A stretch of 11,741 nt of DNA from a virus (IMGVR_UViG_2778261639_000023:1-11741), one strand, 5' to 3'. Counted from the stretch's first letter, positions 1-11,741 are shown. The notes: a model not told the origin generated them from the sequence alone. A program made the numbers and translations.

Positions 1-1158
1 ATGCTCACCGTTAAGCAGATTGAAGCAGCAAAGCCGAAAGAAAAACCATACCGCCTTCTCGATGGTAATGGCCTGTACCTTTATGTCCCTGTATCCGGGA
101 AAAAGGTATGGCAGCTTCGCTACAAGATTGACGGTAAGGAGAAAATCCTGACCGTCGGAAAATATCCACTTATGACTTTGCAGGAGGCAAGGGATAAGGC
201 ATGGGCTGCGAGGAAAGACATCTCGGCTGGCATCGATCCGGTAAAGGCGAAAAAGGCTTCGTCTAACAACAATTCCTTTAGTGCGATTTACAAAGAATGG
301 TACGAGCACAAGAAGCAAGTATGGTCAGTAGGGTATGCGACTGAACTTGCCAAAATGTTTGATGACGACATTTTACCCATCATCGGCGGTCTTGAGATTC
401 AGGATATTGAGCCGATGCAACTGCTGGAAGTAATCCGCAGGTTTGAAGATCGCGGTGCAATGGAGCGAGCCAACAAAGCCCGCAGAAGATGCGGCGAAGT
501 TTTCCGTTACGCTATTGTCACCGGAAGGGCTAAATACAACCCGGCACCTGACCTTGCAGACGCCATGAAGGGATACCGCAAGAAGAACTTCCCGTTTCTT
601 CCTGCAGACCAGATCCCGGCATTTAATAAAGCACTGGCAACATTTTCAGGAAGTATCGTATCGCTCATTGCCACCAAGGTTTTACGCTACACAGCCCTAA
701 GAACGAAAGAGCTTCGTTCCATGCAATGGAAGAACGTCGATTTTGAAAACAGGATTATCACCATCGACGCCAGTGTGATGAAAGGACGCAAAATTCATGT
801 GGTTCCTATGTCAGACCAGGTAGTTGAACTTCTCACTACGCTAAGCTCAATCACCAAACCAGTCTCAGAGTTTGTTTTTGCCGGGCGCAACGATAAGAAG
901 AAGCCAATCTGCGAGAACGCGGTATTGCTTGTGATCAAACAAATCGGCTATGAGGGTCTGGAAAGCGGTCACGGATTCAGGCATGAATTCAGCACGATTA
1001 TGAACGAGCACGAATGGCCTGCTGATGCTATTGAAGTGCAACTGGCACATGCCAACGGCGGATCTGTGCGCGGGATTTACAACCATGCTCAGTATCTCGA
1101 TAAGCGCAGAGAAATGATGCAGTGGTGGGCGGATTGGCTTGATGAGAAGGTGGAGTGA
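1..1158 (+). CDS. intS: Phage integrase, tyrosine recombinase (P4/IntS-type with N-terminal arm-binding domain)
   Basis: 385-aa ORF. N-terminus MLTVKQIEAAKP...YRLLDGNGLYLYV is the signature of the DUF4102 arm-binding domain of P4-family integrases. C-terminal catalytic region has HGFRHEF (HxxR) and a late Tyr (RGIYNHAQY). From memory it closely resembles E. coli K-12 CPS-53 IntS, which also sits beside a gtrABC-like operon; not verified by search. Confidence 0.93.
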   Translation: MLTVKQIEAAKPKEKPYRLLDGNGLYLYVPVSGKKVWQLRYKIDGKEKILTVGKYPLMTLQEARDKAWAARKDISAGIDPVKAKKASSNNNSFSAIYKEWYEHKKQVWSVGYATELAKMFDDDILPIIGGLEIQDIEPMQLLEVIRRFEDRGAMERANKARRRCGEVFRYAIVTGRAKYNPAPDLADAMKGYRKKNFPFLPADQIPAFNKALATFSGSIVSLIATKVLRYTALRTKELRSMQWKNVDFENRIITIDASVMKGRKIHVVPMSDQVVELLTTLSSITKPVSEFVFAGRNDKKKPICENAVLLVIKQIGYEGLESGHGFRHEFSTIMNEHEWPADAIEVQLAHANGGSVRGIYNHAQYLDKRREMMQWWADWLDEKVE

Positions 1159-1311
1159 ACCACCTTAATCATTATCGAAGATCGCAAAGCCTTGCAAGCC
1201 AATGCAAATCTTTGTGTGCATCAGTTTTGTCTCATCAACCACAGCAAGTCATCGATCGATTGAGGCTTGGATGATAGACTTCATGCCTTTCTGAACTTAT
1301 TGATTAAATAA
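1159..1311 (+). promoter_or_regulatory. int-gtrA intergenic region; probable promoter/leader of the gtr operon
   Basis: 153-bp non-coding gap directly upstream of gtrA. Contains -35-like TTGCAA (1192-1197) and TTGAGG (1260-1265) and two GATC sites (1180-1183, 1254-1257). No clean sigma70 -35/-10 pair with canonical spacing could be fixed by eye. Confidence 0.35.
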
Positions 1312-1674
1312 ATGTTAAAGCTATTTGCAAAGTACACCTCGATTGGTGTGCTGAACACACTTATACACTGGGTGGTTTTTGGTGTTTGTATCTATGCAGC
1401 GCATACAAACCAGGCTCTTGCAAACTTCGCAGGTTTCGTTGTGGCTGTGAGCTTTAGCTTCTTCGCGAATGCAAAATTCACATTCAAAGCTTCGACTACA
1501 ACGATGCGCTACATGTTATATGTCGGGTTCATGGGAACACTGAGTGCAACTGTTGGATGGGCTGCTGATAGATGTTCACTTCCTCCAATTGTCACTCTCG
1601 TCACCTTCTCCGCCATCAGCCTGGTGTGCGGTTTCGTCTATTCAAAGTTCATTGTCTTTAGGGATGCGAAATGA
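1312..1674 (+). CDS. gtrA: GtrA, bactoprenol-linked glucose translocase (flippase)
   Basis: 120-aa small hydrophobic protein with about four predicted TM segments, the typical GtrA size. Immediately precedes gtrB with a 4-nt ATGA overlap. Confidence 0.9.
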
Positions 1675-2597
1675 AGATATCTCTTGTAGTTCCTGTCTTC
1701 AATGAAGAAGAAGCGATACCAATTTTTTATAAAACGGTACGTGAGTTCGAAGAGTTGAAGCCATATGAAGTGGAAATTGTTTTCATAAATGACGGAAGCA
1801 AAGACGCTACGGAGTCAATTATTAATGCTCTGGCTGTTTCAGACCCGCTGGTTGTTCCGCTGTCATTTACACGAAACTTTGGTAAAGAACCAGCATTGTT
1901 TGCAGGGCTAGACCATGCAACCGGAGATGCTGTAATTCCAATTGATGTTGACCTGCAAGATCCGATTGAGGTTATTCCCCACCTCATCGAAAAGTGGCAG
2001 GCAGGCTCTGATATGGTGCTGGCTAAGCGAACTGATCGCTCAACTGACGGACGACTGAAACGCAAAACGGCAGAGTGGTTTTATAAATTGCACAACAAAA
2101 TAAGCAACCCAAAGATCGAGGAGAATGTCGGCGATTTCCGGTTAATGAGCCGTGAAGTTGTCGAAAACATTAAGCTTATGCCAGAGCGCAACCTTTTTAT
2201 GAAAGGTGTGCTGAGTTGGGTTGGCGGTCGCACAGATGTTGTCGAGTATGCACGCGCAGAACGAGTGGCAGGCAGTACTAAATTTAATGGATGGAAACTG
2301 TGGAACCTGGCACTTGAGGGGATCACAAGCTTCTCTACTTTCCCGTTGCGCATGTGGACTTACATTGGCCTGTTCGTAGCTGGAGTTGCGTTCATGTACG
2401 GAGCGTGGATGATTGTCGATACGCTGGCATTTGGAAACGCAGTGCGTGGTTATCCATCCTTGCTGGTTTCCATCCTTTTCCTGGGTGGCATACAACTGAT
2501 TGGTATTGGCGTCCTAGGTGAATACATTGGAAGGATTTACATTGAAGTTAAAGGCAGACCAAGATATCTAATTAAGGCACGCAAGAATGAAAAATAA
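1671..2597 (+). CDS. gtrB: GtrB, bactoprenol glucosyltransferase (GT2 family)
   Basis: 308 aa. N-terminal GT2 signature ([12 protein letters not shown]...INDGSKD...DVDLQDP) and C-terminal TM helices, typical of GtrB/ArnC-like polyprenyl-phosphate glycosyltransferases. Translationally coupled to both neighbours. Confidence 0.93.
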
Positions 2598-3987
2598 ACT
2601 ACTTCACTGGTCTGTAGAAGGTTTGGCGGCCATTTTTATAGTCATTGCCTTTAGTTATTACTTTGGGTATGCCTTCACCAATCCAGATTCAGTTATTTAC
2701 AAGATAATTGCTGATGGAATAGTCAAGCACGGAGATCTTCCATATACCTTCGCCTTCGATCATAAGCCAGCTTTTATTTTCTATACTTACGCACTATTTT
2801 CACTTATCTATCCATTTAAGGTAGGCTTTTTCGCTGCCTTTTCGCTTCTTTTTTATCTTTTTACGGGATCATTGATATCTAAGCTAGCGACAGGTAGTTT
2901 CAAGCATGCATTGAGCTCTTCTGCTGCGGTGCTGTTTTTCTATTTCCCATTTCTTGATTTTTCTGGCAATACCGAGATTGTGTATAACCTCTACGCAATA
3001 GCATCTCTTTGCCTGCTTTACTGCTATAGCGCAGGATCAATGTTATTGTTTTTTTCTGGGGTGCTGGCAATTTTTGCGGTAAACACTAACTATATGGCAG
3101 GCGTAATGCTTTCACTGCCAACAATATATTTATTAATGCGAGATGGACTGAGTCCAACTGCCAAAAGGGCTGCATGGTATGCATTAGGAGTGATTGCTGG
3201 ACTTGCTATTATCCTTTTACCTATTGCTATGCAGGGATCATTGATTAGTGGTTATTTCGAGCCGCAAATTCATTTCTTAACCTCATATAACGAATCATCG
3301 CCTGGTTTCAAAACAACACTTTATTATTACTTACCTGTTCTACTGAGCATTCTTATCGCTCCGGCTTGTGTATTATTTGGATGGGTAAAGCGGGACGTTC
3401 CTGCAAGAGGGTGGGTTGCATTTGTAATCACCACCATCTCTGCATCAATAACCCTTATCTTAACAGGTAAGGAGGGTATGCATTACGCAGCCATTTACTT
3501 TGCTCCTGTTGCAATGCTAGCCGTGGCTATGGGAAGAAACCCTGTACCCATAGTGCTGGCATGCTCAATACCATTTAACTTTTACTATGCAAAGAACACT
3601 GAATATCTGTTCGAGTTGCATAACCGAGTAGAGCTATCTTATACCAAAGCTAAGGCTGAGGAGTTTGCTGCGATGCATCAGCTTGTCGGTAATGAGAAAG
3701 TGATGTCAATAAGGGCTTCGCATGTCTTATTCTACCTGTCAGACATGATCCCTTTCCATCCTTACATTTGGAACGGCCATTCAAAACTTGTATTTGGTGA
3801 TAAAGAGAATGAGTATTTTATCAAACAGTTGGAATTATCTCCTAAGTTCGTTCTTACTGGCAATGGATACTGTGAGAAGGCTGATCGCATGATTGATGTT
3901 TGCGATATGATAAAACATCATTACACCAAAAAGATGAGCATTAGCTGGGCGTTCGGATACGGTGGTGATTTGTATCAGGCTAAGTAA
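2587..3987 (+). CDS. gtrC: Serotype-specific O-antigen glucosyltransferase (GtrC / Gtr-type, polytopic membrane protein)
   Basis: 466-aa highly hydrophobic multi-TM protein in third position of the gtr operon; start overlaps the gtrB stop by 11 nt. Strongly AT-rich (about 37% GC in hand-sampled lines), as expected for horizontally acquired type-specific gtr genes. Specificity cannot be inferred. Confidence 0.8.
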
Positions 3988-3991
3988 ATAT

Positions 3992-4009
3992 AAGGGGTGC
4001 CCACCCCTT
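3992..4009. terminator. GC-rich hairpin between convergent gtrC and tailspike genes (candidate bidirectional terminator)
   Basis: AAGGGGTG-cc-CACCCCTT inverted repeat lying between the gtrC stop (3985-3987) and the tailspike stop (4015-4017). Flanked by A/T-rich sequence on the gtrC side; no strong U-tract on the + strand. Confidence 0.5.
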
Positions 4010-4014
4010 ACGCT

Positions 4015-6231
4015 CTACACTTCCCACCATCCTTGTGCTCCTGACATCTTGATAAATGTTTTTGACCATCCATTTCCTGTTTTTGTTTCCGTGCCAACAC
4101 TTAGAGGCACTATTCTATTTTCGGATGCTGTACTGCTAAATATAAACGTAACACTAGAGGATAAAGATACTCCGCGTATCACCACTCTGTCTCCGGGCTT
4201 ACCTCCTGTGATTGTGTCAATGCTTTTAGTTGCGGACGATATCCATACATTGCCATGCGAGAATGGAAGTACTGATCCAGTCAATGACTCAAGGGGTTTT
4301 GATGGGCATGGCTCACCATAGATTTGTGGGTCGTTTACACCTGCTGGAATAAGCAGTGTGGAGTTATACTTATTACCTGATCCATAAAGAGTTGGCTCAG
4401 TTGCTCCGCTCCATGTAATAGGGTAATGAGCAACAGATTTCATAGTAAAATCGTTATCACGCAACCTTAAAATGCACGCCTGAGCATTGATATACGTTAA
4501 GGCACCGCTGTTTGCCATCGCGTCAAACCAGTTGCTTCTGAATGTGGCGTCAGCGTTGTTGAAAACAACAACCGGGTCGAGTTGAGATGCTGCTGATGAA
4601 CCCCAGAGATGCGCCTTGAAGGTGCAGTTTTGTACCTTCATTCCTTTGACACTTCCTATGCGCATGAACTGGAAGCAGTTTTTTAGAATAACGCCATCAA
4701 CAATAATTGCCCCATCAGAGAAGAATGAAGGGTTTATTGCTGGTTGGGCATGTAACCCACGAAATGCCGAGTCGATGTTACCGCCTAAAATATGAACCTT
4801 GCCCATATTACCGAAAATTCGGTAAGCAGTACTCAAGTCAACTTTAGTTGACTGCACCTCGCAGTTGATAAACATAAACGTGTGATCGAAGTTTGACCAT
4901 GAAGGTAGCGGGTCGCCAGTGGAGCCGTCTTTGTCGGTGGTAATAATCTGGACGCTGGAGTTAGCGTATACAGTGTCATCGCTGAACTTAATCTTCATGT
5001 TTTCGAAGATAACGTTCTGCGAATAACGCGTAATTCCACGGTCTCCAGAGTAGCAATAACAAGCTGACTTCGTGTTGTAGGCTGTGATGTTGAGAAAATA
5101 CGCGTTGTAGCATGATGCCACTCGCCACCATCCATCACAGGTAGACACGTTTTCTACATTAAACCGCTCGACATGAATATTGTAAGGATGCAAACCATTT
5201 GTCATGGTTGAGTTTGTTGCTGGGTTTTCCGGTGCCAGACCATACTCAAAGTTACATCCAAATTTCCAAGGCCCTCCACTTATCAGGCAGTCATGCAGTC
5301 TAATGCCATCTAATTCCCCCATTCCGCAAACAACAAACCCATTGTTTAAACCTTTCCCTGTAACATTATAAATTCTGTCAATCTCAACGTCACTGGTCAT
5401 TGCACTTCCAAGATATTGACCACCAACCCAAATCATTACAGTTTGAGGCGCTGATGGATTGCTGGCGGTTGCATCTGCCCTTGTTTCTGCAACGTCATAT
5501 ACAAAGTTGGATATGCGGACTTTTTTTGAATTGTAAACGACGAAAGTATGGTTCGCGCGACCACCTGATGTAGGAATAAACCCTTGGACGTTATCCATTA
5601 TCTTCGCGCCATTGAAGTTCAGCGTGATATTACTGACTCCAATGCATTGCACGGTGCCGGTAAGGAGATACGTACTGGATGGATTGCCAATAAACTCCAC
5701 ACCCACGCCGCTGTAGGTGGTGATGGCGGTGTTTAGCGCTGCAGAGCTATCAAGAACACCCGACTTATCTACGCCCGGCAGATCGTCGATAAACATGAAT
5801 ACACGATCAAGGTATTGCGTGAGATTAACGCCGCCCTTGGTACCAATCAGGTTTGTTCCTGGAGGGTCAAATGAAGCTAATTGCTGACTGAACTGATCAG
5901 GATCATACTTCAGCACATTAGGGAAATAGAATTGCCGCGCCCCATACGCATCATAAACAGCCATAGAATGGCCTTGCTCAGTTACGAACTTGGTAATCTG
6001 TCCATTATATACAGGGTAACCAGCAGCGTTAATGATGATTGGTTGCGAAACAGGAACGTGAGAGCCGTCTTCGTTTTCCACATAAACCTGAATCTGGTTT
6101 TCAGGATTTACCGGGTCAGTGTCAATTTTACCGATATAAATTTTGCCATTGGCTACGGCTTTAAAAGAACGAGCCATAGTGAAGAGTTGCGAAGGCATGC
6201 TGACCACAACATTGGCGGTGATATCTGACAT
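4015..6231 (-). CDS. Tailspike protein (P22 gp9-type N-terminal head-binding domain plus divergent beta-helix receptor-binding/enzymatic domain)
   Basis: N-terminus [59 protein letters not shown] closely matches the P22 tailspike N-terminus as recalled ([59 protein letters not shown]). Start moved from the track's 6279 to the ATG at 6229-6231, which has a GGAG Shine-Dalgarno 8 nt upstream and aligns with the P22 start. 738 aa. Confidence 0.9.
5890..6231 (-). other. Tailspike N-terminal capsid/head-binding domain (conserved module, about residues 1-114)
   Basis: Conservation with the P22 head-binding domain continues through ...[10 protein letters not shown]...[10 protein letters not shown], then similarity to P22 is lost. 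Boundary is approximate. Confidence 0.75.
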
Positions 6232-6352
6232 TTCATTGCTCCAGACGAATGATATGATGCAACCATGATGTGATTGCATACCGAAATGGTACTATTGAGT
6301 ATTTATCCAGTAGGTTACGATGCCATTCCACCCAACTGGTGAGGCATCAAGG
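6232..6352. promoter_or_regulatory. Divergent control region between tailspike (-) and mnt (+); candidate promoters and operator-like inverted repeats
   Basis: 121-bp gap. Inverted repeat TGCAA-N11-TTGCA (about 6259-6279) and ATGATG direct repeats one helical turn apart (6254-6259, 6265-6270) on the tailspike side; CACC-N5-GGTG inverted repeat (about 6329-6342) overlapping the mnt RBS (GAGG 6342-6345). -10-like TATCAT on the minus strand about 20 nt upstream of the tailspike ATG; possible TTGAGT/TACGAT pair for mnt. Functional sites are unproven. Confidence 0.45.
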
Positions 6353-6619
6353 ATGTACAGCAAATACGACGAGGCGCAGTTTCACTTGAGACTTCCGCAT
6401 GAACTCCACGCGAAAATTAAACAGCGTGCGAAGATGAATAACAGGTCGCTGAACTCAGAGATAATTGCAGCGATTGAAGAATCGTTGGCTAAACAAAGCT
6501 CTGCATCCGTTTACATTGACGATGCAGAGCGTATGGCAGAACAACAATCTGATATGGTTAAGAAAATGGTTTTTGAAACGCTTAAGACCATGTATAGCAA
6601 TAATAAAAAGGAAACATAG
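6353..6619 (+). CDS. mnt: Mnt-like ribbon-helix-helix repressor (immI region)
   Basis: 88 aa from the ATG at 6353 (GAGG SD 7 nt upstream; the track's extra 11 N-terminal codons are unlikely). Aligns along its length with P22 Mnt as recalled: RHH region ...QFHLRLPHELHAKIKQRAKMNNRSLNSEIIAAIEESL and C-terminal tetramerisation region DAERMAEQQSDMVKKMVFETLK (P22: DAERLADEQSELVKKMVFDTLK). Confidence 0.85.
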   Translation: MYSKYDEAQFHLRLPHELHAKIKQRAKMNNRSLNSEIIAAIEESLAKQSSASVYIDDAERMAEQQSDMVKKMVFETLKTMYSNNKKET

Positions 6620-6689
6620 AAATCTAGTTTCCGGCTAAAATGGCATTGCCTTCATGATATCCTGTGAAAAACTAAGGAGAGTTAACCAT

Positions 6690-7175
6690 ATGAAAAAATC
6701 ACTGTTAATTATCCCGCTTCTGCTGGTTGGATGCGCAAAAGTAAGTGACTATCAAGCAAGTTGCGAACAACGCTATCAAAAGCTTAGCGATATGGCTAAT
6801 TGCCTTGATGCTAGTGTGAAGAACGACTCACGCATGGCATCTGCACCAACACCTAAGCTGTATGTCCTTGCTGCAAAGATGCTCGGGCAAGGTGTTGATG
6901 AAGGTAAAATAAGTGACGCACAGGCAAGACTTGAGCTTCAAAATCTTTATGTTCAATTACAAAGCCAAGAAAAAGCCCAACAAATAGCGCAAAGCCAAGC
7001 ATTCCAGCAGGCTTTATTGAATTATCAGGCTGTAAACACAATGCAAGCGATCGAGCAAAAAGCGAGACAGCCTGTTATAACTCAACCCTATCCAACACGC
7101 GTTGACACTTACACAAACTGCAATTCAGGGTTTGGAAATACAGTCACATGCAACAGTAGCAGTAACATAAGATAA
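6690..7175 (+). CDS. Lipoprotein of unknown function (moron at the sieA-equivalent position); type II signal peptide, Gln-rich coiled-coil-like segment, Cys pairs
   Basis: Start at ATG 6690 with strong SD AAGGAGA (6675-6680); 161 aa. MKKSLLIIPLLLVGC has a lipobox (LVGC; Cys15 at 6732-6734) with Ala at +2, suggesting outer-membrane sorting. Mature part has Cys pairs (SCEQ...NCLD; TNCNSGFGNTVTCN) and a Q/A-rich heptad-like stretch (LQNLYVQLQSQEKAQQIAQSQAFQQALL). No family recognised. Confidence 0.75.
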   Translation: MKKSLLIIPLLLVGCAKVSDYQASCEQRYQKLSDMANCLDASVKNDSRMASAPTPKLYVLAAKMLGQGVDEGKISDAQARLELQNLYVQLQSQEKAQQIAQSQAFQQALLNYQAVNTMQAIEQKARQPVITQPYPTRVDTYTNCNSGFGNTVTCNSSSNIR

Positions 7176-7265: not shown

Positions 7266-9263
7266 CTATTCTGACAACGCATCAGACTTAGCCCCCTGAG
7301 TCAGGGCGTTAATGGCCTTTTGTGCCTGCTGCATGGCTTTCTCGAACGCTGTTGATCCGCGTTGGGTGTTTGCCATTCGGAGCATTGCATTTCTGAATGG
7401 CTCGCTCTCATAGGCGCGAGTAAGAAGTCCATAGCTTACCGCTGCGCCAGTTGTCGCAGGGTTCATTGCTGTCCCATATCCGATAATGAACGGGATGGTT
7501 TGCTGCCCTGTTGGTGTTGTTACTGCCGCTTTTGCAGCCTGCTGCGTGGATTGCAGGTAGTTTTTCAATCCTTTCAGATAAGCGGCTTCCTGACCTTTAA
7601 ATGTGATGCCAGTCTGGTTTTGCAGGATGTTAAGCTGCCGAAGGAACTGGTCAGGGGATCCGCCAGATTTCTCCATCGCCTTTCCAATGATGCCATTGCG
7701 CATTTGCGCCCTGCCAACACGACCAACTGAGTTATACAGCGTCTTAATTTCAGATTTGTTCTTGCTGAATAGCATGTTGTTGACAACTTCCGGCGTCAGA
7801 TCGCCTTTCATGAGAACATTCTTCAGCCTGGTATTCTTGAGTTTCGCCGCTTCGTCAGCGTAGACGGCATTGGCCTGCTGATATTTACGGAGAGTATCGT
7901 TGCCAAGATTCTGACCAATGGCACCATTGATATCGTCGGTCATCGCCTTGTAAACGCGCTGAATGGCGGCATCGGAACGGTTTGGTAACACTGGTCGCTC
8001 ACCCTTCACGTCCATTCTGAACTGGCTGCGCAGATCGCTTAATTGCTTCAAGTCCAGATTTACCGGACCATCAGGACCAGCATTGCGAACAAGCTCATCA
8101 CGATATGACTGAAGTTTTGAAATAGTCTCGTTATCAGCGACCTTACCAAGCTTCTGCAGATTAGATATTTCTGTATCAATCTGCTGAATTGCTCGCGCAG
8201 GCTGAATGTTTACTCCAGCCATAGCATTCTGAACCTGCTCCAGTCGATTACCGGCGGCACGACGAATTCCTGATGTTTTCGCTTTAAGGCTGTCAATAAC
8301 AACCGCTGGATCATACTCACCGAATTTATCGGCAAATCTCTGCACCAGCTGGCTTCTCGCTTCCTGTTGCGTTGCTCTCATTCCGCTTGTGCCAGCCAGA
8401 GGGATATTTTCTGCTGTAGTCTGCGCCATTTTTCCGACGCGGGAAGTTGGTTGTAACAGGTCTGTGGTGTGCAGAGGAACTCCTTCACGCTCTGCAAATC
8501 TGATAGCCTGCTGCGCTTCTGGCGCGATAGCACCACGAACGCCACGATAAGCAGCACCTAATCCACGTCCGGCAGCGTTAATAGCACCGCCAGCAAGTAC
8601 ACCAACGCCTAAATCGGTGGCGAGTGCTTCCGCATCATCTTTCGCACTATTTGCAGCAAGTGATCCAACTGCGTTTTCTGCTAGAAGGCGAGTTGCCCCC
8701 TGAGCAATTCGACCAGCAAGTGTTGGTGCCTGTGTTGCCGCTCTCTCAACGCCAGCAGGAGTGAGGTAAGGCAATGCTTCAGCAAACACCCTGCCCTCTG
8801 TAGTTTGTGGAGTCAGCGCGCCTTGCTGAAGGCCAAAGTCCTGCTCTAATCCCTGCGTTGTTACTCGTGGCGATGGTTGATATGTACCATCGCCAATGCC
8901 GAGTTTACCGCCAGCCCAAGCCGCCGCGCTTGTTACAGCATCGGCAACTGATGCAGGTATGTTTGCCACGTTCACGCCAGCCTGCACCAGTCCGCGACCA
9001 GTCTCTTTTACTGCTTCGCCAAGATCAGACATAAATCCACTTTGCTGTGGTTGTTGCTGTGCTACTGGTTGCTGTGTCTCCACTTGCTGCACAGATAGCA
9101 ATGGATAGGCAGCATAGAAAGCTTTCTTAGCCTGCTCTGCATTTTCTCCGGCTTGCGGGGCCACGACTTCATTGAAGTATTGCTCCTGAGCCTGCGCTTT
9201 TTGTTCTGGTGCTAACGCCTGATACTGTGGAGAGGCGATAACATCTTTCCATGCTTTAGCCAT
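7266..9263 (-). CDS. Ejection (DNA-injection, E) protein, P22 gp16-like
   Basis: 665 aa, Ala/Gln/Gly-rich with low-complexity segments. Last gene of the minus-strand cluster, directly before the immI/tailspike region as gene 16 is in P22-like phages. Start ATG (9261-9263) overlaps the upstream gene's stop as TAATG. Assignment rests on size, synteny and composition, not verified alignment. Confidence 0.7.
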   Translation of the reverse strand: MAKAWKDVIASPQYQALAPEQKAQAQEQYFNEVVAPQAGENAEQAKKAFYAAYPLLSVQQVETQQPVAQQQPQQSGFMSDLGEAVKETGRGLVQAGVNVANIPASVADAVTSAAAWAGGKLGIGDGTYQPSPRVTTQGLEQDFGLQQGALTPQTTEGRVFAEALPYLTPAGVERAATQAPTLAGRIAQGATRLLAENAVGSLAANSAKDDAEALATDLGVGVLAGGAINAAGRGLGAAYRGVRGAIAPEAQQAIRFAEREGVPLHTTDLLQPTSRVGKMAQTTAENIPLAGTSGMRATQQEARSQLVQRFADKFGEYDPAVVIDSLKAKTSGIRRAAGNRLEQVQNAMAGVNIQPARAIQQIDTEISNLQKLGKVADNETISKLQSYRDELVRNAGPDGPVNLDLKQLSDLRSQFRMDVKGERPVLPNRSDAAIQRVYKAMTDDINGAIGQNLGNDTLRKYQQANAVYADEAAKLKNTRLKNVLMKGDLTPEVVNNMLFSKNKSEIKTLYNSVGRVGRAQMRNGIIGKAMEKSGGSPDQFLRQLNILQNQTGITFKGQEAAYLKGLKNYLQSTQQAAKAAVTTPTGQQTIPFIIGYGTAMNPATTGAAVSYGLLTRAYESEPFRNAMLRMANTQRGSTAFEKAMQQAQKAINALTQGAKSDALSE

Positions 9264-10696
9264 TAATCACCCCATAGTGAAGAAAAGTTACTGCTGGCTG
9301 CTGGCTGTGATACCTGTGTGGGTTGAGATTGCTGCCGCTGAGATTTACCAACATTAACGTTATATTGTTGGTTGTAATTGTTGGTGTATTCCTGAATCTC
9401 ACGAATCGACTGCTGCATAGCCTCCGGGCTTGAATAGTCAACCTGCGGCATCCCCTGAAAATACATCTTCGCTTCTGCTACGGTGTTAATACCACTGGCA
9501 CCCATGTCCCTTGCTGCCGCCACGCCCTGATTCTGCATTCTTCCCTGAATACGTTGTGCTGAGTTATATAACTGACGCTGATCTTTTCCTGTTAATCGGC
9601 TGCGAACATCAGCACCAATTGCCGGGTTACCTGCACCGCCGGTCATTCCTGTCATGAAATCGAGAGCAGAAGCGTCTGCATTTGCGATCGCGTCGATATC
9701 CTTCTTCATGGCATAGTTTTGTGCTGATGCAGACGATGTTGCAGGCGCTGCGATTGAACTGGCAGGAACGCGAACCATATTCCCCTCGTTGTCGATGCCT
9801 TCGTAGAACGCATTTGCCCCAGCGCCGTGAAGTTTCCCGCCAACCGTTACCGTTCTACCATCTGCCAGTTGCACAACATTCTCCCCGCCAGCATCAGGAC
9901 GGCCTCGAACACGAAGATATGTCTTTTGTTGCTCTGGAGACAGGCTGTTGAAATATTGATATTCTTTAACAGATGCAGGAACAGCACCTCCAGCAGTGCG
10001 CAGGGAGTTTTCACGGCTAACAGCAATGCTTTGCGCCTGTAAACCTTCCCCAGCTTTATTGCTGCGAATCGTCTCTGCCAACTCGCCACGCTCAATATCC
10101 CGACCAGCCATCTTGTCCTGAACATTGAAGTAATCAATCGGACCAAGCGCAGCCATCCCAAGATGATCAACAAATTCTGTGAAACCTTGTGGATTTTGCT
10201 GATACATTTTCGCCACATCCAGAGGGTCTACTCCGGCACGAGTAAGCTCAGATGAGTTGTTCTGCAACCATGACATCATGGCTTCTGGAGATGAAGCTGC
10301 GAGTCTGGCACTTGCTGCCAGTGTACCGACAGTGGAACGCTGGTCTTCATCGACAAATTTCATGCCGTTTCTTACAGCGTCAAACTGCTCAGGATACTGT
10401 GATGCCAGTTTTCGCATTGCATCGCGGTCGCCAGATGTATATGCATCAGCATAAGCCTGCTGAAACTCTTGCTGCCGCTTCTGCTGATCCATCTGCTTAT
10501 ACATATCCATGACAGATGAAATGCCCTGCAAAGCCTGCAAGCCAACGTTATTACGTCCTGAACGCTCCATCTCATTATTCTGTCGAATGTATGCAAGCGT
10601 GGCGTCTGCATCACTTGCTCTTGGAGCGTTGGAGTTCATGCCGCCTAACCCGGCAAGAAGCGCGCCTGAATTACCAGCCTGTTGCCATGTAGCCAA
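9263..10696 (-). CDS. Ejection (E) protein, P22 gp20-like
   Basis: 477 aa (P22 gp20 is of similar size), immediately upstream of and coupled to the gp16-like gene. Apparent TTG start at 10694-10696 with a strong GGAGG SD 6 nt upstream; an in-frame stop precludes a longer N-terminus. Confidence 0.7.
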
Positions 10697-10708
10697 GAGA
10701 CACCTCCA

Positions 10709-11032
10709 TTAAAACAGTGAACCAAGAAGGCCGACGCCAGCACCAATTGCTGTACCCCAACCAGGCATGATTGCAGTACCTGCAGCTGCACCTGCCGCAG
10801 CTCCACCCAAGGCGCTCTGAAATCCTGATGGTTTAACTCCGGATGGTTGGGTTATAGTGCCGAAGAAACTAACCGCTGAGAACGGCGCTAAGGGTGTGCT
10901 ATCCGGTGAATTTTCAGAAACGACGTTTATAAGCTGCCCGGAATGTTTTGGCGATGATGATTGCGATACCTGTGACGGTAGCGGGCGGATTGAAATTAAA
11001 GTACCAGTCACGTGGACGACCATAAAATCCAT
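10709..11032 (-). pseudogene. Possible 3' remnant of an ejection-protein gene (gp7-like) with C-terminal glycine-zipper segment; extent and intactness uncertain
   Basis: Stop TAA (10709-10711) sits 1 nt before the gp20-like SD, so the 3' end is in operon context. C-terminus ...ALGGAAAGAAAGTAIMPGWGTAIGAGVGLLGSLF looks like a membrane glycine zipper. N-terminal two-thirds is Ser/Pro-rich low complexity with no SD before either ATG (11032 or 11021), and 107 aa is far shorter than P22 gp7 (about 229 aa). It overlaps a plausible + strand ORF. Confidence 0.35.
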
Positions 11033-11093
11033 CTGGGATAAAGGTATTGCGTATTTTTCAGCAGAACCGAGGCAGGAGGTTAACCGTGGCTAA
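10857..11093 (+). CDS. Hypothetical small Cys-rich (zinc-finger-like) protein; conflicts with the minus-strand ORF 10709..11032
   Basis: 78-aa ORF containing CPEC-x5-CDTCDGSG (CxxC...CxxCxGxG, reminiscent of DnaJ-type zinc knuckles). Its end overlaps the start of the downstream ASCH-like gene by 8 nt, suggesting coupling. Weaknesses: GTG start and poor SD. Confidence 0.3.
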   Translation: MPKKLTAENGAKGVLSGEFSETTFISCPECFGDDDCDTCDGSGRIEIKVPVTWTTIKSIWDKGIAYFSAEPRQEVNRG

Positions 11094-11370
11094 CCTGCAA
11101 CTTGCAGTCAAAGGCGAATACTTCGATGCCATGATTCGCGGAGAGAAAACAGAAGAATATCGCCTGTGTAATGACTACTGGAATAAGCGCCTCGTTAACC
11201 GCGAGTATGGCAGTCTGATCATCACGAAGGGATATCCGAAGCGCGACGATTCCAGCCGCAGAATTGATGTTCCGTATGACGGATATGAAATCAAGACAAT
11301 CACACATCCGCACTTCGGTGATAAACCGGTAAAGGTGTTCGCGATAAAGGTGAATATCGGCAATGAATAA
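11086..11370 (+). CDS. ASCH/PUA-like domain protein (DUF3850-like)
   Basis: Start chosen at GTG 11086, preceded by a perfect AGGAGG (11074-11079) with 6-nt spacing; the track's TTG at 11047 has no SD. 94 aa. Motif ...KGEYFDAMIRGEKTEEYR...GSLIITKGY... fits the beta-barrel ASCH/DUF3850 pattern common in phage accessory regions. Confidence 0.65.
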   Translation: MANLQLAVKGEYFDAMIRGEKTEEYRLCNDYWNKRLVNREYGSLIITKGYPKRDDSSRRIDVPYDGYEIKTITHPHFGDKPVKVFAIKVNIGNE

Positions 11371-11374
11371 CAAT

Positions 11375-11429
11375 CCTCGCACTCGCGGGGATTTCTTTTA
11401 TCTGAACTCGCTACGGCGAGTTTTGTTTT
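11375..11429 (+). terminator. Two tandem hairpins downstream of the ASCH-like gene; the second is a good intrinsic terminator
   Basis: Hairpin 1: CCTCGC-actc-GCGGGG (11375-11390, one G-U pair) followed by ATTTCTTTT. Hairpin 2: ACTCGC-tacg-GCGAGT (11406-11421, 6-bp stem, 4-nt loop) followed by TTTGTTTT (11422-11429). Confidence 0.55.
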
Positions 11430-11441
11430 ATGGAGATGATT

Positions 11442-11741
11442 ATGGCCTGTTCAACATTCAACCCTCTAACGTTACAGAAATACCAGCCAGACCCTGAAGA
11501 TTTATGCTCACTGTGTGGCGGAAATCATGGTAAAGCCGCCATGATCGAATGTAAGGACAAAATCCACATATGCCTTAATTGCGTTGATGTCCTCGTTGAT
11601 ATCAAAAATGATAGAGAAGATAAAAAGCGTAGCGAGGCTGTTCGCGCCTTAGATTCATGGATGCGAGATGGGTATAGTGCCGCGCAAATTTATGACTTAG
11701 CAATATCAAAAGGCGAAATACCAGGAGTGCGCATCGAATAA
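11442..11741 (+). CDS. Hypothetical zinc-ribbon protein (CxxC-x16-CxxC)
   Basis: Start chosen at ATG 11442 (GGAG 11432-11435, 6-nt spacer); 99 aa. Contains CSLCGG...HICLNC, an N-terminal zinc-ribbon-like motif, followed by a charged helical C-terminal half. Ends exactly at the window edge with TAA. Family not recognised. Confidence 0.55.
   Translation: MACSTFNPLTLQKYQPDPEDLCSLCGGNHGKAAMIECKDKIHICLNCVDVLVDIKNDREDKKRSEAVRALDSWMRDGYSAAQIYDLAISKGEIPGVRIE

Follow-up and report, generated by a model that had tools for sequence, protein, structure and literature searches.

An unnamed family of putative GT-C glycosyltransferases in the third position of a gtr operon, in a deleted P22-like prophage of Escherichia coli

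The described systems closest to the one considered here are the gtr modules of the Shigella phages SfI, SfII, SfIV and SfV, that of phage P22, that of phage HF4s, and yfdG-yfdH-yfdI in the cryptic CPS-53 remnant of E. coli K-12. The GtrC enzymes of such modules set the O-antigen subtype that is displayed, and with it serotyping, recognition by vaccines and antibodies, and phage host range. GtrC proteins already make up many families that are mutually unrecognisable, and the finding of further ones was explicitly predicted by Davies et al. (PMC3688519). For two of the Salmonella families, II and IV, gel assays revealed no visible alteration of the O-antigen (PMC3688519), so that a position in a gtr operon is no guarantee of O-antigen glucosylation. 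In E. coli, about half of the O-units with a Glc side-branch have no transferase gene in their cluster, and these have been attributed to Gtr systems (PMC7685785).

The window -- the whole stretch of DNA analysed here, 11,741 nucleotides of IMGVR_UViG_2778261639_000023 -- makes up the left end of an E. coli prophage that is P22/Sf6/HF4s-like (Lederbergvirus-type) and whose int, gtrA, gtrB and ejection genes are about 90-96% identical to those of HF4s, Sf6 and IME10 (megablast, phage records). The element is a deleted remnant of about 12 kb, with gp7 truncated and fused to an early-left ASCH gene, and it is without any head, lysis or replication genes. Its features are:

1-1158, plus strand: int, IntS-type tyrosine integrase (Pfam Phage_integrase, Arm-DNA-bind_3, Phage_int_M), at the argW/yfdC-proximal end of the element
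1159-1311, plus strand: int-gtrA intergenic region, the presumed gtr promoter/regulatory region, SfV/SfIV-like (aligned with SfV, SfIV and P22)
1312-1674, plus strand: gtrA, putative Und-P-Glc flippase (Pfam PF04138 GtrA_DPMS_TM, E=1.8e-13)
1671-2597, plus strand: gtrB, GT2 bactoprenol glucosyltransferase, i.e. Und-P-Glc synthase (Pfam PF00535 Glycos_transf_2, E=2e-31)
2587-3987, plus strand: third gene (gtrC position), 466-aa membrane glycosyltransferase of predicted GT-C fold, unnamed family
3990-4011, no strand: GC-rich hairpin in the gap between gtrC and the tailspike gene, which are convergent; a terminator-like site with a 9-bp stem
4015-6231, minus strand: P22-type tailspike (Pfam Head_binding, E=1.7e-65, residues 17-129)
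6320-6619, plus strand: mnt/arc-like gene
6654-7175, plus strand: lipoprotein-like ORF
7266-9263, minus strand: gp16
9263-10696, minus strand: gp20
about 2350 to about 6550, no strand: recombination cassette of the gtrB 3' end, gtrC, the tailspike gene and mnt (sliding identity against L001 and L002)

On longer contigs, a yfdC-like Form_Nir_trans gene flanks int in the same element, and the arrangement at this end is that of K-12 argW-intS-yfdGHI. The gtrA and gtrB genes overlap by 4 nt (ATGA), and GtrB shows 90-94% amino acid identity to those of SfIV, SfII, SfI and SfV (94% to SfIV) and 87.5-87.8% to that of P22. The int-gtrA intergenic region carries two GATC sites, at 1180 and 1254; phase variation of the P22-like Dam/OxyR kind was considered and is not claimed, the leader being SfV-like, with only those two sites and not the four-GATC signature. 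The tailspike has 738 aa when counted from Met17 of its 754-aa ORF, as the gene callers also have it.

The third gene, called gtrC below, starts with the ATG at 2587, stops at 3985-3987 and overlaps gtrB by 11 nt, its 466 codons and coordinates being exactly those of the initial annotation. That annotation had also taken gtrA and gtrB for conserved family members, which the Pfam matches and the GtrB identities bear out, and the third protein for a polytopic one, in agreement with the approximately 11 membrane-spanning helices of its AlphaFold2 (AF2) model; the length of about 443 aa given there for YfdI of K-12 is likewise correct (443 aa). Eleven homologues align end to end from a common Met1, and the dN/dS ratio of gtrC is 0.12 (dS = 0.69) in comparison with an 84%-identical homologue and 0.22 in comparison with the 99% alleles; by the full-length alignment and the ratio of 0.12, gtrC is a real gene. 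The identical protein sequence was found on at least 24 contigs, and there are about 12 near-identical variants in total; candidate carriers include the assemblies GCA_020514385.1, GCA_002510355.1, GCA_958333395.1 and GCA_900450375.1, and the cluster counts some 60 contigs; in NCBI the exact protein and its variants are labelled "hypothetical protein [Escherichia coli]".

A marked drop in GC at this gene had been reported from hand counts, about 37% against about 55% in the ejection genes. The direction is right and the size is not: the measured values are 40.3% for gtrC (about 38% in its first 300 nt or so) against 50-51%, with 51.2% in gp16, 49.9% in gp20, 45.2% in gtrA, 45.1% in gtrB and 44.7% in the tailspike gene, and with a local maximum of 56.7%. 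The same offset is seen in four other lineages (gtrC 38-40%, gtrB 45-51%). GC3 is 38.8% for gtrC, 43.7% for gtrB and 48.8% for gtrA; since it drops less than overall GC does, part of the contrast would seem to come from the hydrophobic amino-acid composition of the protein.

In its setting, gtrC corresponds closely to the genes for the characterised Gtr proteins. Like GtrI, GtrII, GtrIV and GtrV of the Shigella phages, it lies third after nearly identical gtrA and gtrB genes (GtrB 90-94%) in a prophage location beside int and a tail gene, and its product resembles theirs in size (417-506 aa), in polytopic build and in a presumed GT-C mechanism with Und-P-Glc. As in P22, the gtrABC operon is convergent with the tailspike gene of a P22-like phage; as in K-12 CPS-53, the order is argW/yfdC-intS-gtrA-gtrB-third gene, kept in a cryptic remnant. 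HF4s has the same backbone, its int, gtrA, gtrB and ejection genes being alike at about 90% of nucleotides, whereas its GtrC and tailspike are different, the third gene and the receptor-binding domain having been swapped as a cassette.

In sequence the likeness ends. The third-gene proteins used for reference, all taken from annotated records, were GtrIV, GtrV, GtrII, GtrI and P22 GtrC, three from Cronobacter, Hafnia and Enterobacter phages and two from E. coli, along with HF4s GtrC and YfdI. Seven of the first ten belong to Pfam Glucos_trans_II (PF14264), against which GtrII and P22 GtrC score 107-117 bits; this is the commonest GtrC type in prophages of Salmonella, E. coli, Cronobacter, Hafnia and Enterobacter, and the third protein, unlike GtrII, does not match it. 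GtrIV has weak matches to DUF2142/GT87 and GtrI one to PMT_2, while GtrV and YfdI have no Pfam match. HF4s GtrC (410 aa, annotated as epsilon34-like) matches DUF6056 (PF19528) at E=2.5e-49, a domain that the third protein does not match; this comparison of the two was made through Pfam only. No significant similarity to ten of the references was detected by BLASTP, phmmer or hmmsearch, either with the third protein or with its family profile, and hhalign of the profile against YfdI and against GtrI gave nothing. Near-identity to a characterised Gtr protein, named at the outset as what would speak against a divergent transferase, was thus not found among GtrI, II, IV, V, P22 GtrC, HF4s GtrC and YfdI, the last two, 410 and 443 aa long, being unrelated to it in sequence; GtrX, GtrIc and the Salmonella GtrC families III-X were covered indirectly, through the database-wide searches. 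So far as one can judge, the acceptor here is not the S. flexneri Y backbone.

Those wider searches gave a similar picture. The third protein has no Pfam match at E<=0.01 and only noise in NCBIfam and PHROGs; neither the 50,697 phage records nor the 72,556 plasmids searched with tblastn gave a match, and neither did the 5,426 complete E. coli genomes searched with blastn of gtrC (word size 11); in 707 of these genomes the match to gtrAB ends near the start of the third gene. Profile searches of the PDB sequences with two family alignments gave only noise, and a second, word-indexed protein search with a 43-sequence profile brought in no further named relatives. The protein searches thus yielded no characterised homologue from which an annotation might be transferred, and a search of the literature by assembly and by protein accession came back empty. 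When 1.84 billion cluster representatives were searched exhaustively with HMMER, 62 relatives passed E<1e-30 and 968 passed E<1e-3, and those further removed carry Pfam PMT_2 with up to 39 bits; GTDB species representatives also include full-length relatives at 24-30% identity, most of them from Acetobacteraceae and a few from Rhizobiaceae.

All of the homologues whose context was examined lie directly 3' of gtrA-gtrB, and most also lie beside a tailspike gene. They include E. coli proteins with 99% (L001-L004, L088-L093) and 84% (L087) identity, a Pantoea/Mixta group with 48% (L005-L008, L013), metagenomic P22-like prophages with 40% (L009-L010), and a 27%-identical homologue, L011, which is 3' of gtrA-gtrB in a non-phage context; Shinella, too, has the order gtrA-gtrB(71%)-gtrC. 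In Acetobacter, many of the loci lack a gtrB in the surrounding 4 kb, and as the distant Acetobacteraceae relatives are often not beside gtrB, the wider family is not exclusively linked to Gtr systems.

How gtrC came to its place can be read from comparison with two of the E. coli elements, L001 at the argW/yfdC site and L002 at the dacD site. The cassette is 99-100% identical to both; upstream of it, gtrA and gtrB are only 70-88% identical to theirs, and the mosaic junction falls within the 3' end of gtrB. A block of 99-100% identity set on divergent gtrAB means that gtrC and the tailspike gene move together as one cassette, and this mosaicism demonstrates directly what had been supposed from general knowledge of such phages, namely that the third gene was acquired separately from gtrAB. 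The order int-gtrABC-tailspike in a P22-like prophage, with a third gene that varies independently of gtrAB, is thus present here in full. The tailspike itself combines a conserved head-binding domain with a rare receptor-binding domain, for which the only phage match is an uncharacterised protein of Lelliottia phage phD2B (46.6% amino acid identity), and which is absent from the 5,426 complete E. coli genomes. Linkage of gtrC to the tailspike gene is as expected of a transferase that acts on the polysaccharide recognised by the tailspike, and the rarity of both fits a matched pair directed at one rare surface polysaccharide. An attempt to deduce the O-type of the host from the tailspike led nowhere, its receptor-binding domain matching only phD2B and no complete E. 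coli genome; one partial copy of gtrC is labelled E. coli O108:H9, a single label that is too thin for inference.

An AF2 model of the third protein, made from an 11-sequence alignment (pLDDT 77.6, pTM 0.77), has the helices followed by a C-terminal alpha/beta domain. Its top Foldseek matches in the PDB are ArnT, DPY19, AftD, PglB and EmbC, at a probability close to 1 and a TM close to 0.5, and the fold is closest to those of ArnT, which modifies lipid A, and the protein O-mannosyltransferase Pmt4; against BFVD there was no convincing match, the only suggestive one being a weak match to a protein of Oenococcus phage phiS13. When the 43-sequence family profile was aligned with E. coli ArnT by hhalign (E=2.5e-4, probability 43%, 271 columns), the invariant D34 fell on the Asp of the ArnT 'PDETRY' motif and FDHKP on ArnT YFEKP; to judge from these alignments, sequence similarity to proven glycosyltransferases is marginal. 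ArnT differs in being 550 aa long, compared with 466 aa here, and in having another C-terminal domain; its partners are ArnC, ArnE and ArnF where GtrA and GtrB are found here, its acceptor is lipid A where O-antigen is presumed here, and the third protein itself has no significant match to PMT_2 (PF13231).

The predicted topology is 11 TM, N-in and C-out, with a K+R density of 25% in the predicted cytoplasmic loops and 6% in the periplasmic ones. All 22 conserved positions except Met1 are placed in predicted periplasmic loops or in the C-terminal domain: D34, F57-D58-H59-K60-P61, S126-G-N-T-E130, N166-T-N-Y169, Y223/Q227/F230/Y234 and H299-Y300 are periplasmic, and in the C-terminal domain C429 and C439 may form a disulfide. 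The fold of the model is thus GT-C(A), its first extracytoplasmic loop carries a conserved acidic residue together with a [DE]-K-P motif, and the model describes a polytopic inner-membrane enzyme with an active site that would face the periplasm; such a predicted anatomy is the one expected when a GT-C transferase draws its sugar from a polyprenyl-phosphate carrier on the periplasmic side.

The reading of the third gene as encoding a type-specific Gtr glycosyltransferase is upheld by its GtrC position in the gtr operon and by this fold; its product is probably the serotype-specific third partner in a GtrABC system, borne by the prophage, for the glycosylation of glycans in the periplasm. The mechanism proposed follows the established Gtr model (PMC7685785, PMC11127046, PMC3688519). 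GtrB would make undecaprenyl-phosphate-beta-glucose on the cytoplasmic face of the inner membrane, GtrA would flip this Und-P-Glc to the periplasmic face, and the 466-aa GT-C enzyme would move the glucose onto a specific sugar of the Und-PP-linked host O-antigen. Glucose is taken to be the sugar, with Und-P-Glc as its donor, because GtrB is 94% identical to a Shigella GtrB. An inverting GT-C enzyme would probably leave an alpha-glucosyl side-branch. The active site would be formed from the periplasmic loops, the first of them contributing D34 and F-D58-H-K60-P in the manner of the D-E...F-E-K-P of ArnT, with further contributions from the SGNTE, NTNY and YxxxQ loops. The modification would change the receptor seen by the linked tailspike, with the exclusion of superinfecting phages of the same type and an alteration of the O-serotype as its consequences. 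What the analysis shows is the operon position, the fold, where the conserved residues are placed, the linkage to the tailspike and the action of purifying selection. The sugar, the acceptor and the anomeric outcome are inferred: in all likelihood the host O-antigen receives a glucose side-branch, presumably in the alpha configuration. The linkage it makes may be a novel one.

The alternative that survives best keeps a GT-C enzyme that uses the Und-P-Glc made by GtrAB and changes the acceptor, which might be ECA, the LPS core or lipid A, a capsule, or a periplasmic or outer-membrane protein. The closeness of the fold to ArnT and Pmt4 would suit it, as would the Salmonella families II and IV with their unchanged gels (PMC3688519) and the distant Acetobacteraceae relatives that often have neither an adjacent gtrB nor a phage context. 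Against this, gtrC has been inherited together with an O-antigen-type P22 tailspike gene in one cassette of 99-100% identity, gtrC and the receptor-binding domain are both missing from the same 5,426 complete genomes, and the characterised phage-borne GT-C GtrC enzymes of enterobacteria modify O-antigen (PMC7685785, PMC11127046); an acceptor other than O-antigen is therefore judged unlikely.

It is less probable still that gtrC decays unexpressed in a defective prophage, a passenger with no present function in the strain. The state of the remnant of about 12 kb, with its fusion of gp7 to the ASCH gene and its lost head, lysis and replication genes, might lead one to think so, and a simple sigma-70 consensus scan of 1100-4200 detected no clear promoter upstream of gtrA. 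The ORF is nevertheless intact, as are gtrA and gtrB, the exact protein recurs on all those contigs amid its near-identical variants, and both dN/dS values, 0.12 for the 84% homologue and 0.22 for the 99% alleles, speak of constraint; K-12 CPS-53 likewise retains int-gtrABC in a remnant. This suggests that the gtr module has been kept while the rest of the phage was lost.

Least credible is a polytopic O-antigen processor that is not a glycosyltransferase -- a Wzy-type polymerase, a WaaL-like ligase, an acyltransferase like the family II protein of BTP1, or an inhibitor of chain length or polymerase -- since, well as this would suit an AT-rich polytopic membrane protein without a Pfam assignment, and though serotype-converting phages are known to carry wzy or oac genes and Sf6, a close relative of this prophage, has an O-acetyltransferase in the third-gene position, the fold and motifs contradict its polymerase, ligase and acyltransferase forms: the fold is GT-C, Pfam gives no match to Acyl_transf_3 (the AT3/Oac/Salmonella GtrC family II type), and neither a Wzy_C/O-antigen ligase domain nor structural likeness to WaaL or Wzy was found.

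With the Gtr glycosyltransferase reading retained, the third protein is, on its sequence relationships, a new family that would fill the known GtrC role. A stronger proposal, made tentatively and with chances put slightly below even, is that the protein and its ten or so enterobacterial relatives constitute a new glycosyltransferase family whose E. coli member makes an O-antigen side-branch to which a gene has never been assigned. Were this so, the family would merit a CAZy or Pfam entry of its own, for which the recently founded GT136 offers a parallel as a new GT-C sequence family (PMC11127046); the side-branch could be one of the approximately ten Glc-branched E. coli O-units without a cluster-encoded transferase, or alternatively the mark of an O-antigen subtype that is not yet in the serotyping scheme, and with the linked tailspike would come a new receptor specificity to match. 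To our knowledge, few of the E. coli O-units in question have had their specific third gene identified. As a candidate gtrC is clean and intact, and the co-inherited tailspike gene would allow enzyme and receptor specificity to be solved together. With many GtrC families known and more predicted, a specialist would not be surprised by another; the understanding of how Gtr systems work is unchanged, and the value is practical, in a candidate for a new GT family and in the assignment of a side-branch.

As to the end of the operon, the hairpin at 3990-4011, lying as it does between the two convergent genes, is by its sequence probably a bidirectional terminator.

The segment of the window from 2350 to 6550, which runs from the 3' part of gtrB through gtrC and the tailspike gene to mnt, is 99-100% identical to the corresponding segments of two other E. 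coli prophages, L001 and L002, while the gtrA and gtrB genes of the prophages sharing this block show just 70-88% identity; gtrC and the tailspike gene thus recombine as one module. The prophages that share it occupy two chromosomal sites, one on the argW/yfdC side, where the prophage has an IntS integrase, and one on the dacD/sbmC side, where an S24-peptidase gene lies upstream of gtrA. The N-terminal head-binding domain of the tailspike is of the standard P22 type. The tailspike's receptor-binding domain (window 4015-5850, minus strand) matches just one phage protein, a Lelliottia phage phD2B product annotated as hypothetical, at 46.6% amino acid identity, and gave no megablast match among 5,426 complete E. 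coli genomes; judged by sequence, it appears to lie essentially outside the known types.

The leader upstream of gtrA (window 1159-1311) is SfV/SfIV-like, with two GATC sites (1180 and 1254), and does not have the four-GATC signature of Dam/OxyR phase variation seen in P22, whereas in L002, the dacD-site prophage with the same gtrC, the leader (8613-8725) is P22-like and its GATC sites are paired. This difference between the leaders suggests that lysogens may differ in whether the same transferase is phase-variable.

Just beyond the shared block lies one further reading frame:

6654-7175, plus strand: lipoprotein-like ORF of 161-173 aa, likely start at 6690, between mnt and gp16

It has a lipoprotein-type signal with an LLVGC lipobox and matches phrog_6067, a group of unknown function (E=6e-110), with no match to a Pfam family. 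Since it is missing from L001 and L002, whose region is otherwise identical, it is an inserted moron. In P22 the corresponding region holds sieA, and by that analogy the ORF may be a candidate for superinfection exclusion.

The prophage itself is a deleted remnant of about 12 kb, with the int-gtrABC-tailspike-gp16-gp20 genes retained. It also contains:

10709-11032: ORF, gp7 remnant, with only the C-terminal ~45 aa of this ejection protein left

Sequence of an ASCH-domain gene follows from 11085 onward; in HF4s, such a gene lies upstream of xis-int. In L088, a longer contig carrying the same element, the element (7415-19700) ends after a xis-sized ORF, adjoined by LacY/PfkB-type sugar genes. 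The remnant lacks every gene for the head, lysis, replication and immunity (window 10700-11741; L088 7415-19700). The retention of int-gtrABC resembles that of intS-yfdGHI in the CPS-53 remnant of K-12.

An isolate with the label E. coli O108:H9 is the source of two partial copies of the gtrC protein (P0162 and P0163). The published O108 repeat unit is not known to contain glucose. The agreement of this label with an O108 entry in the literature is therefore probably a coincidence; that entry places O108 among the serogroups with one glycosyltransferase fewer in the O-antigen cluster than expected (E. coli O-antigen review, PMC7685785).

Among the GTDB species representatives (loci L024-L049, L059 and L063), full-length relatives of the gtrC family, at 24-30% identity, are found mostly in Acetobacteraceae -- Acetobacter, Komagataeibacter and others -- and the family has no carrier among the Enterobacterales representatives. 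For most of these Acetobacteraceae-centred relatives no gtrB was found within 4 kb; in Shinella and a Rhizobiaceae MAG, a GtrB 70-71% identical to that of E. coli directly adjoins the family relative.
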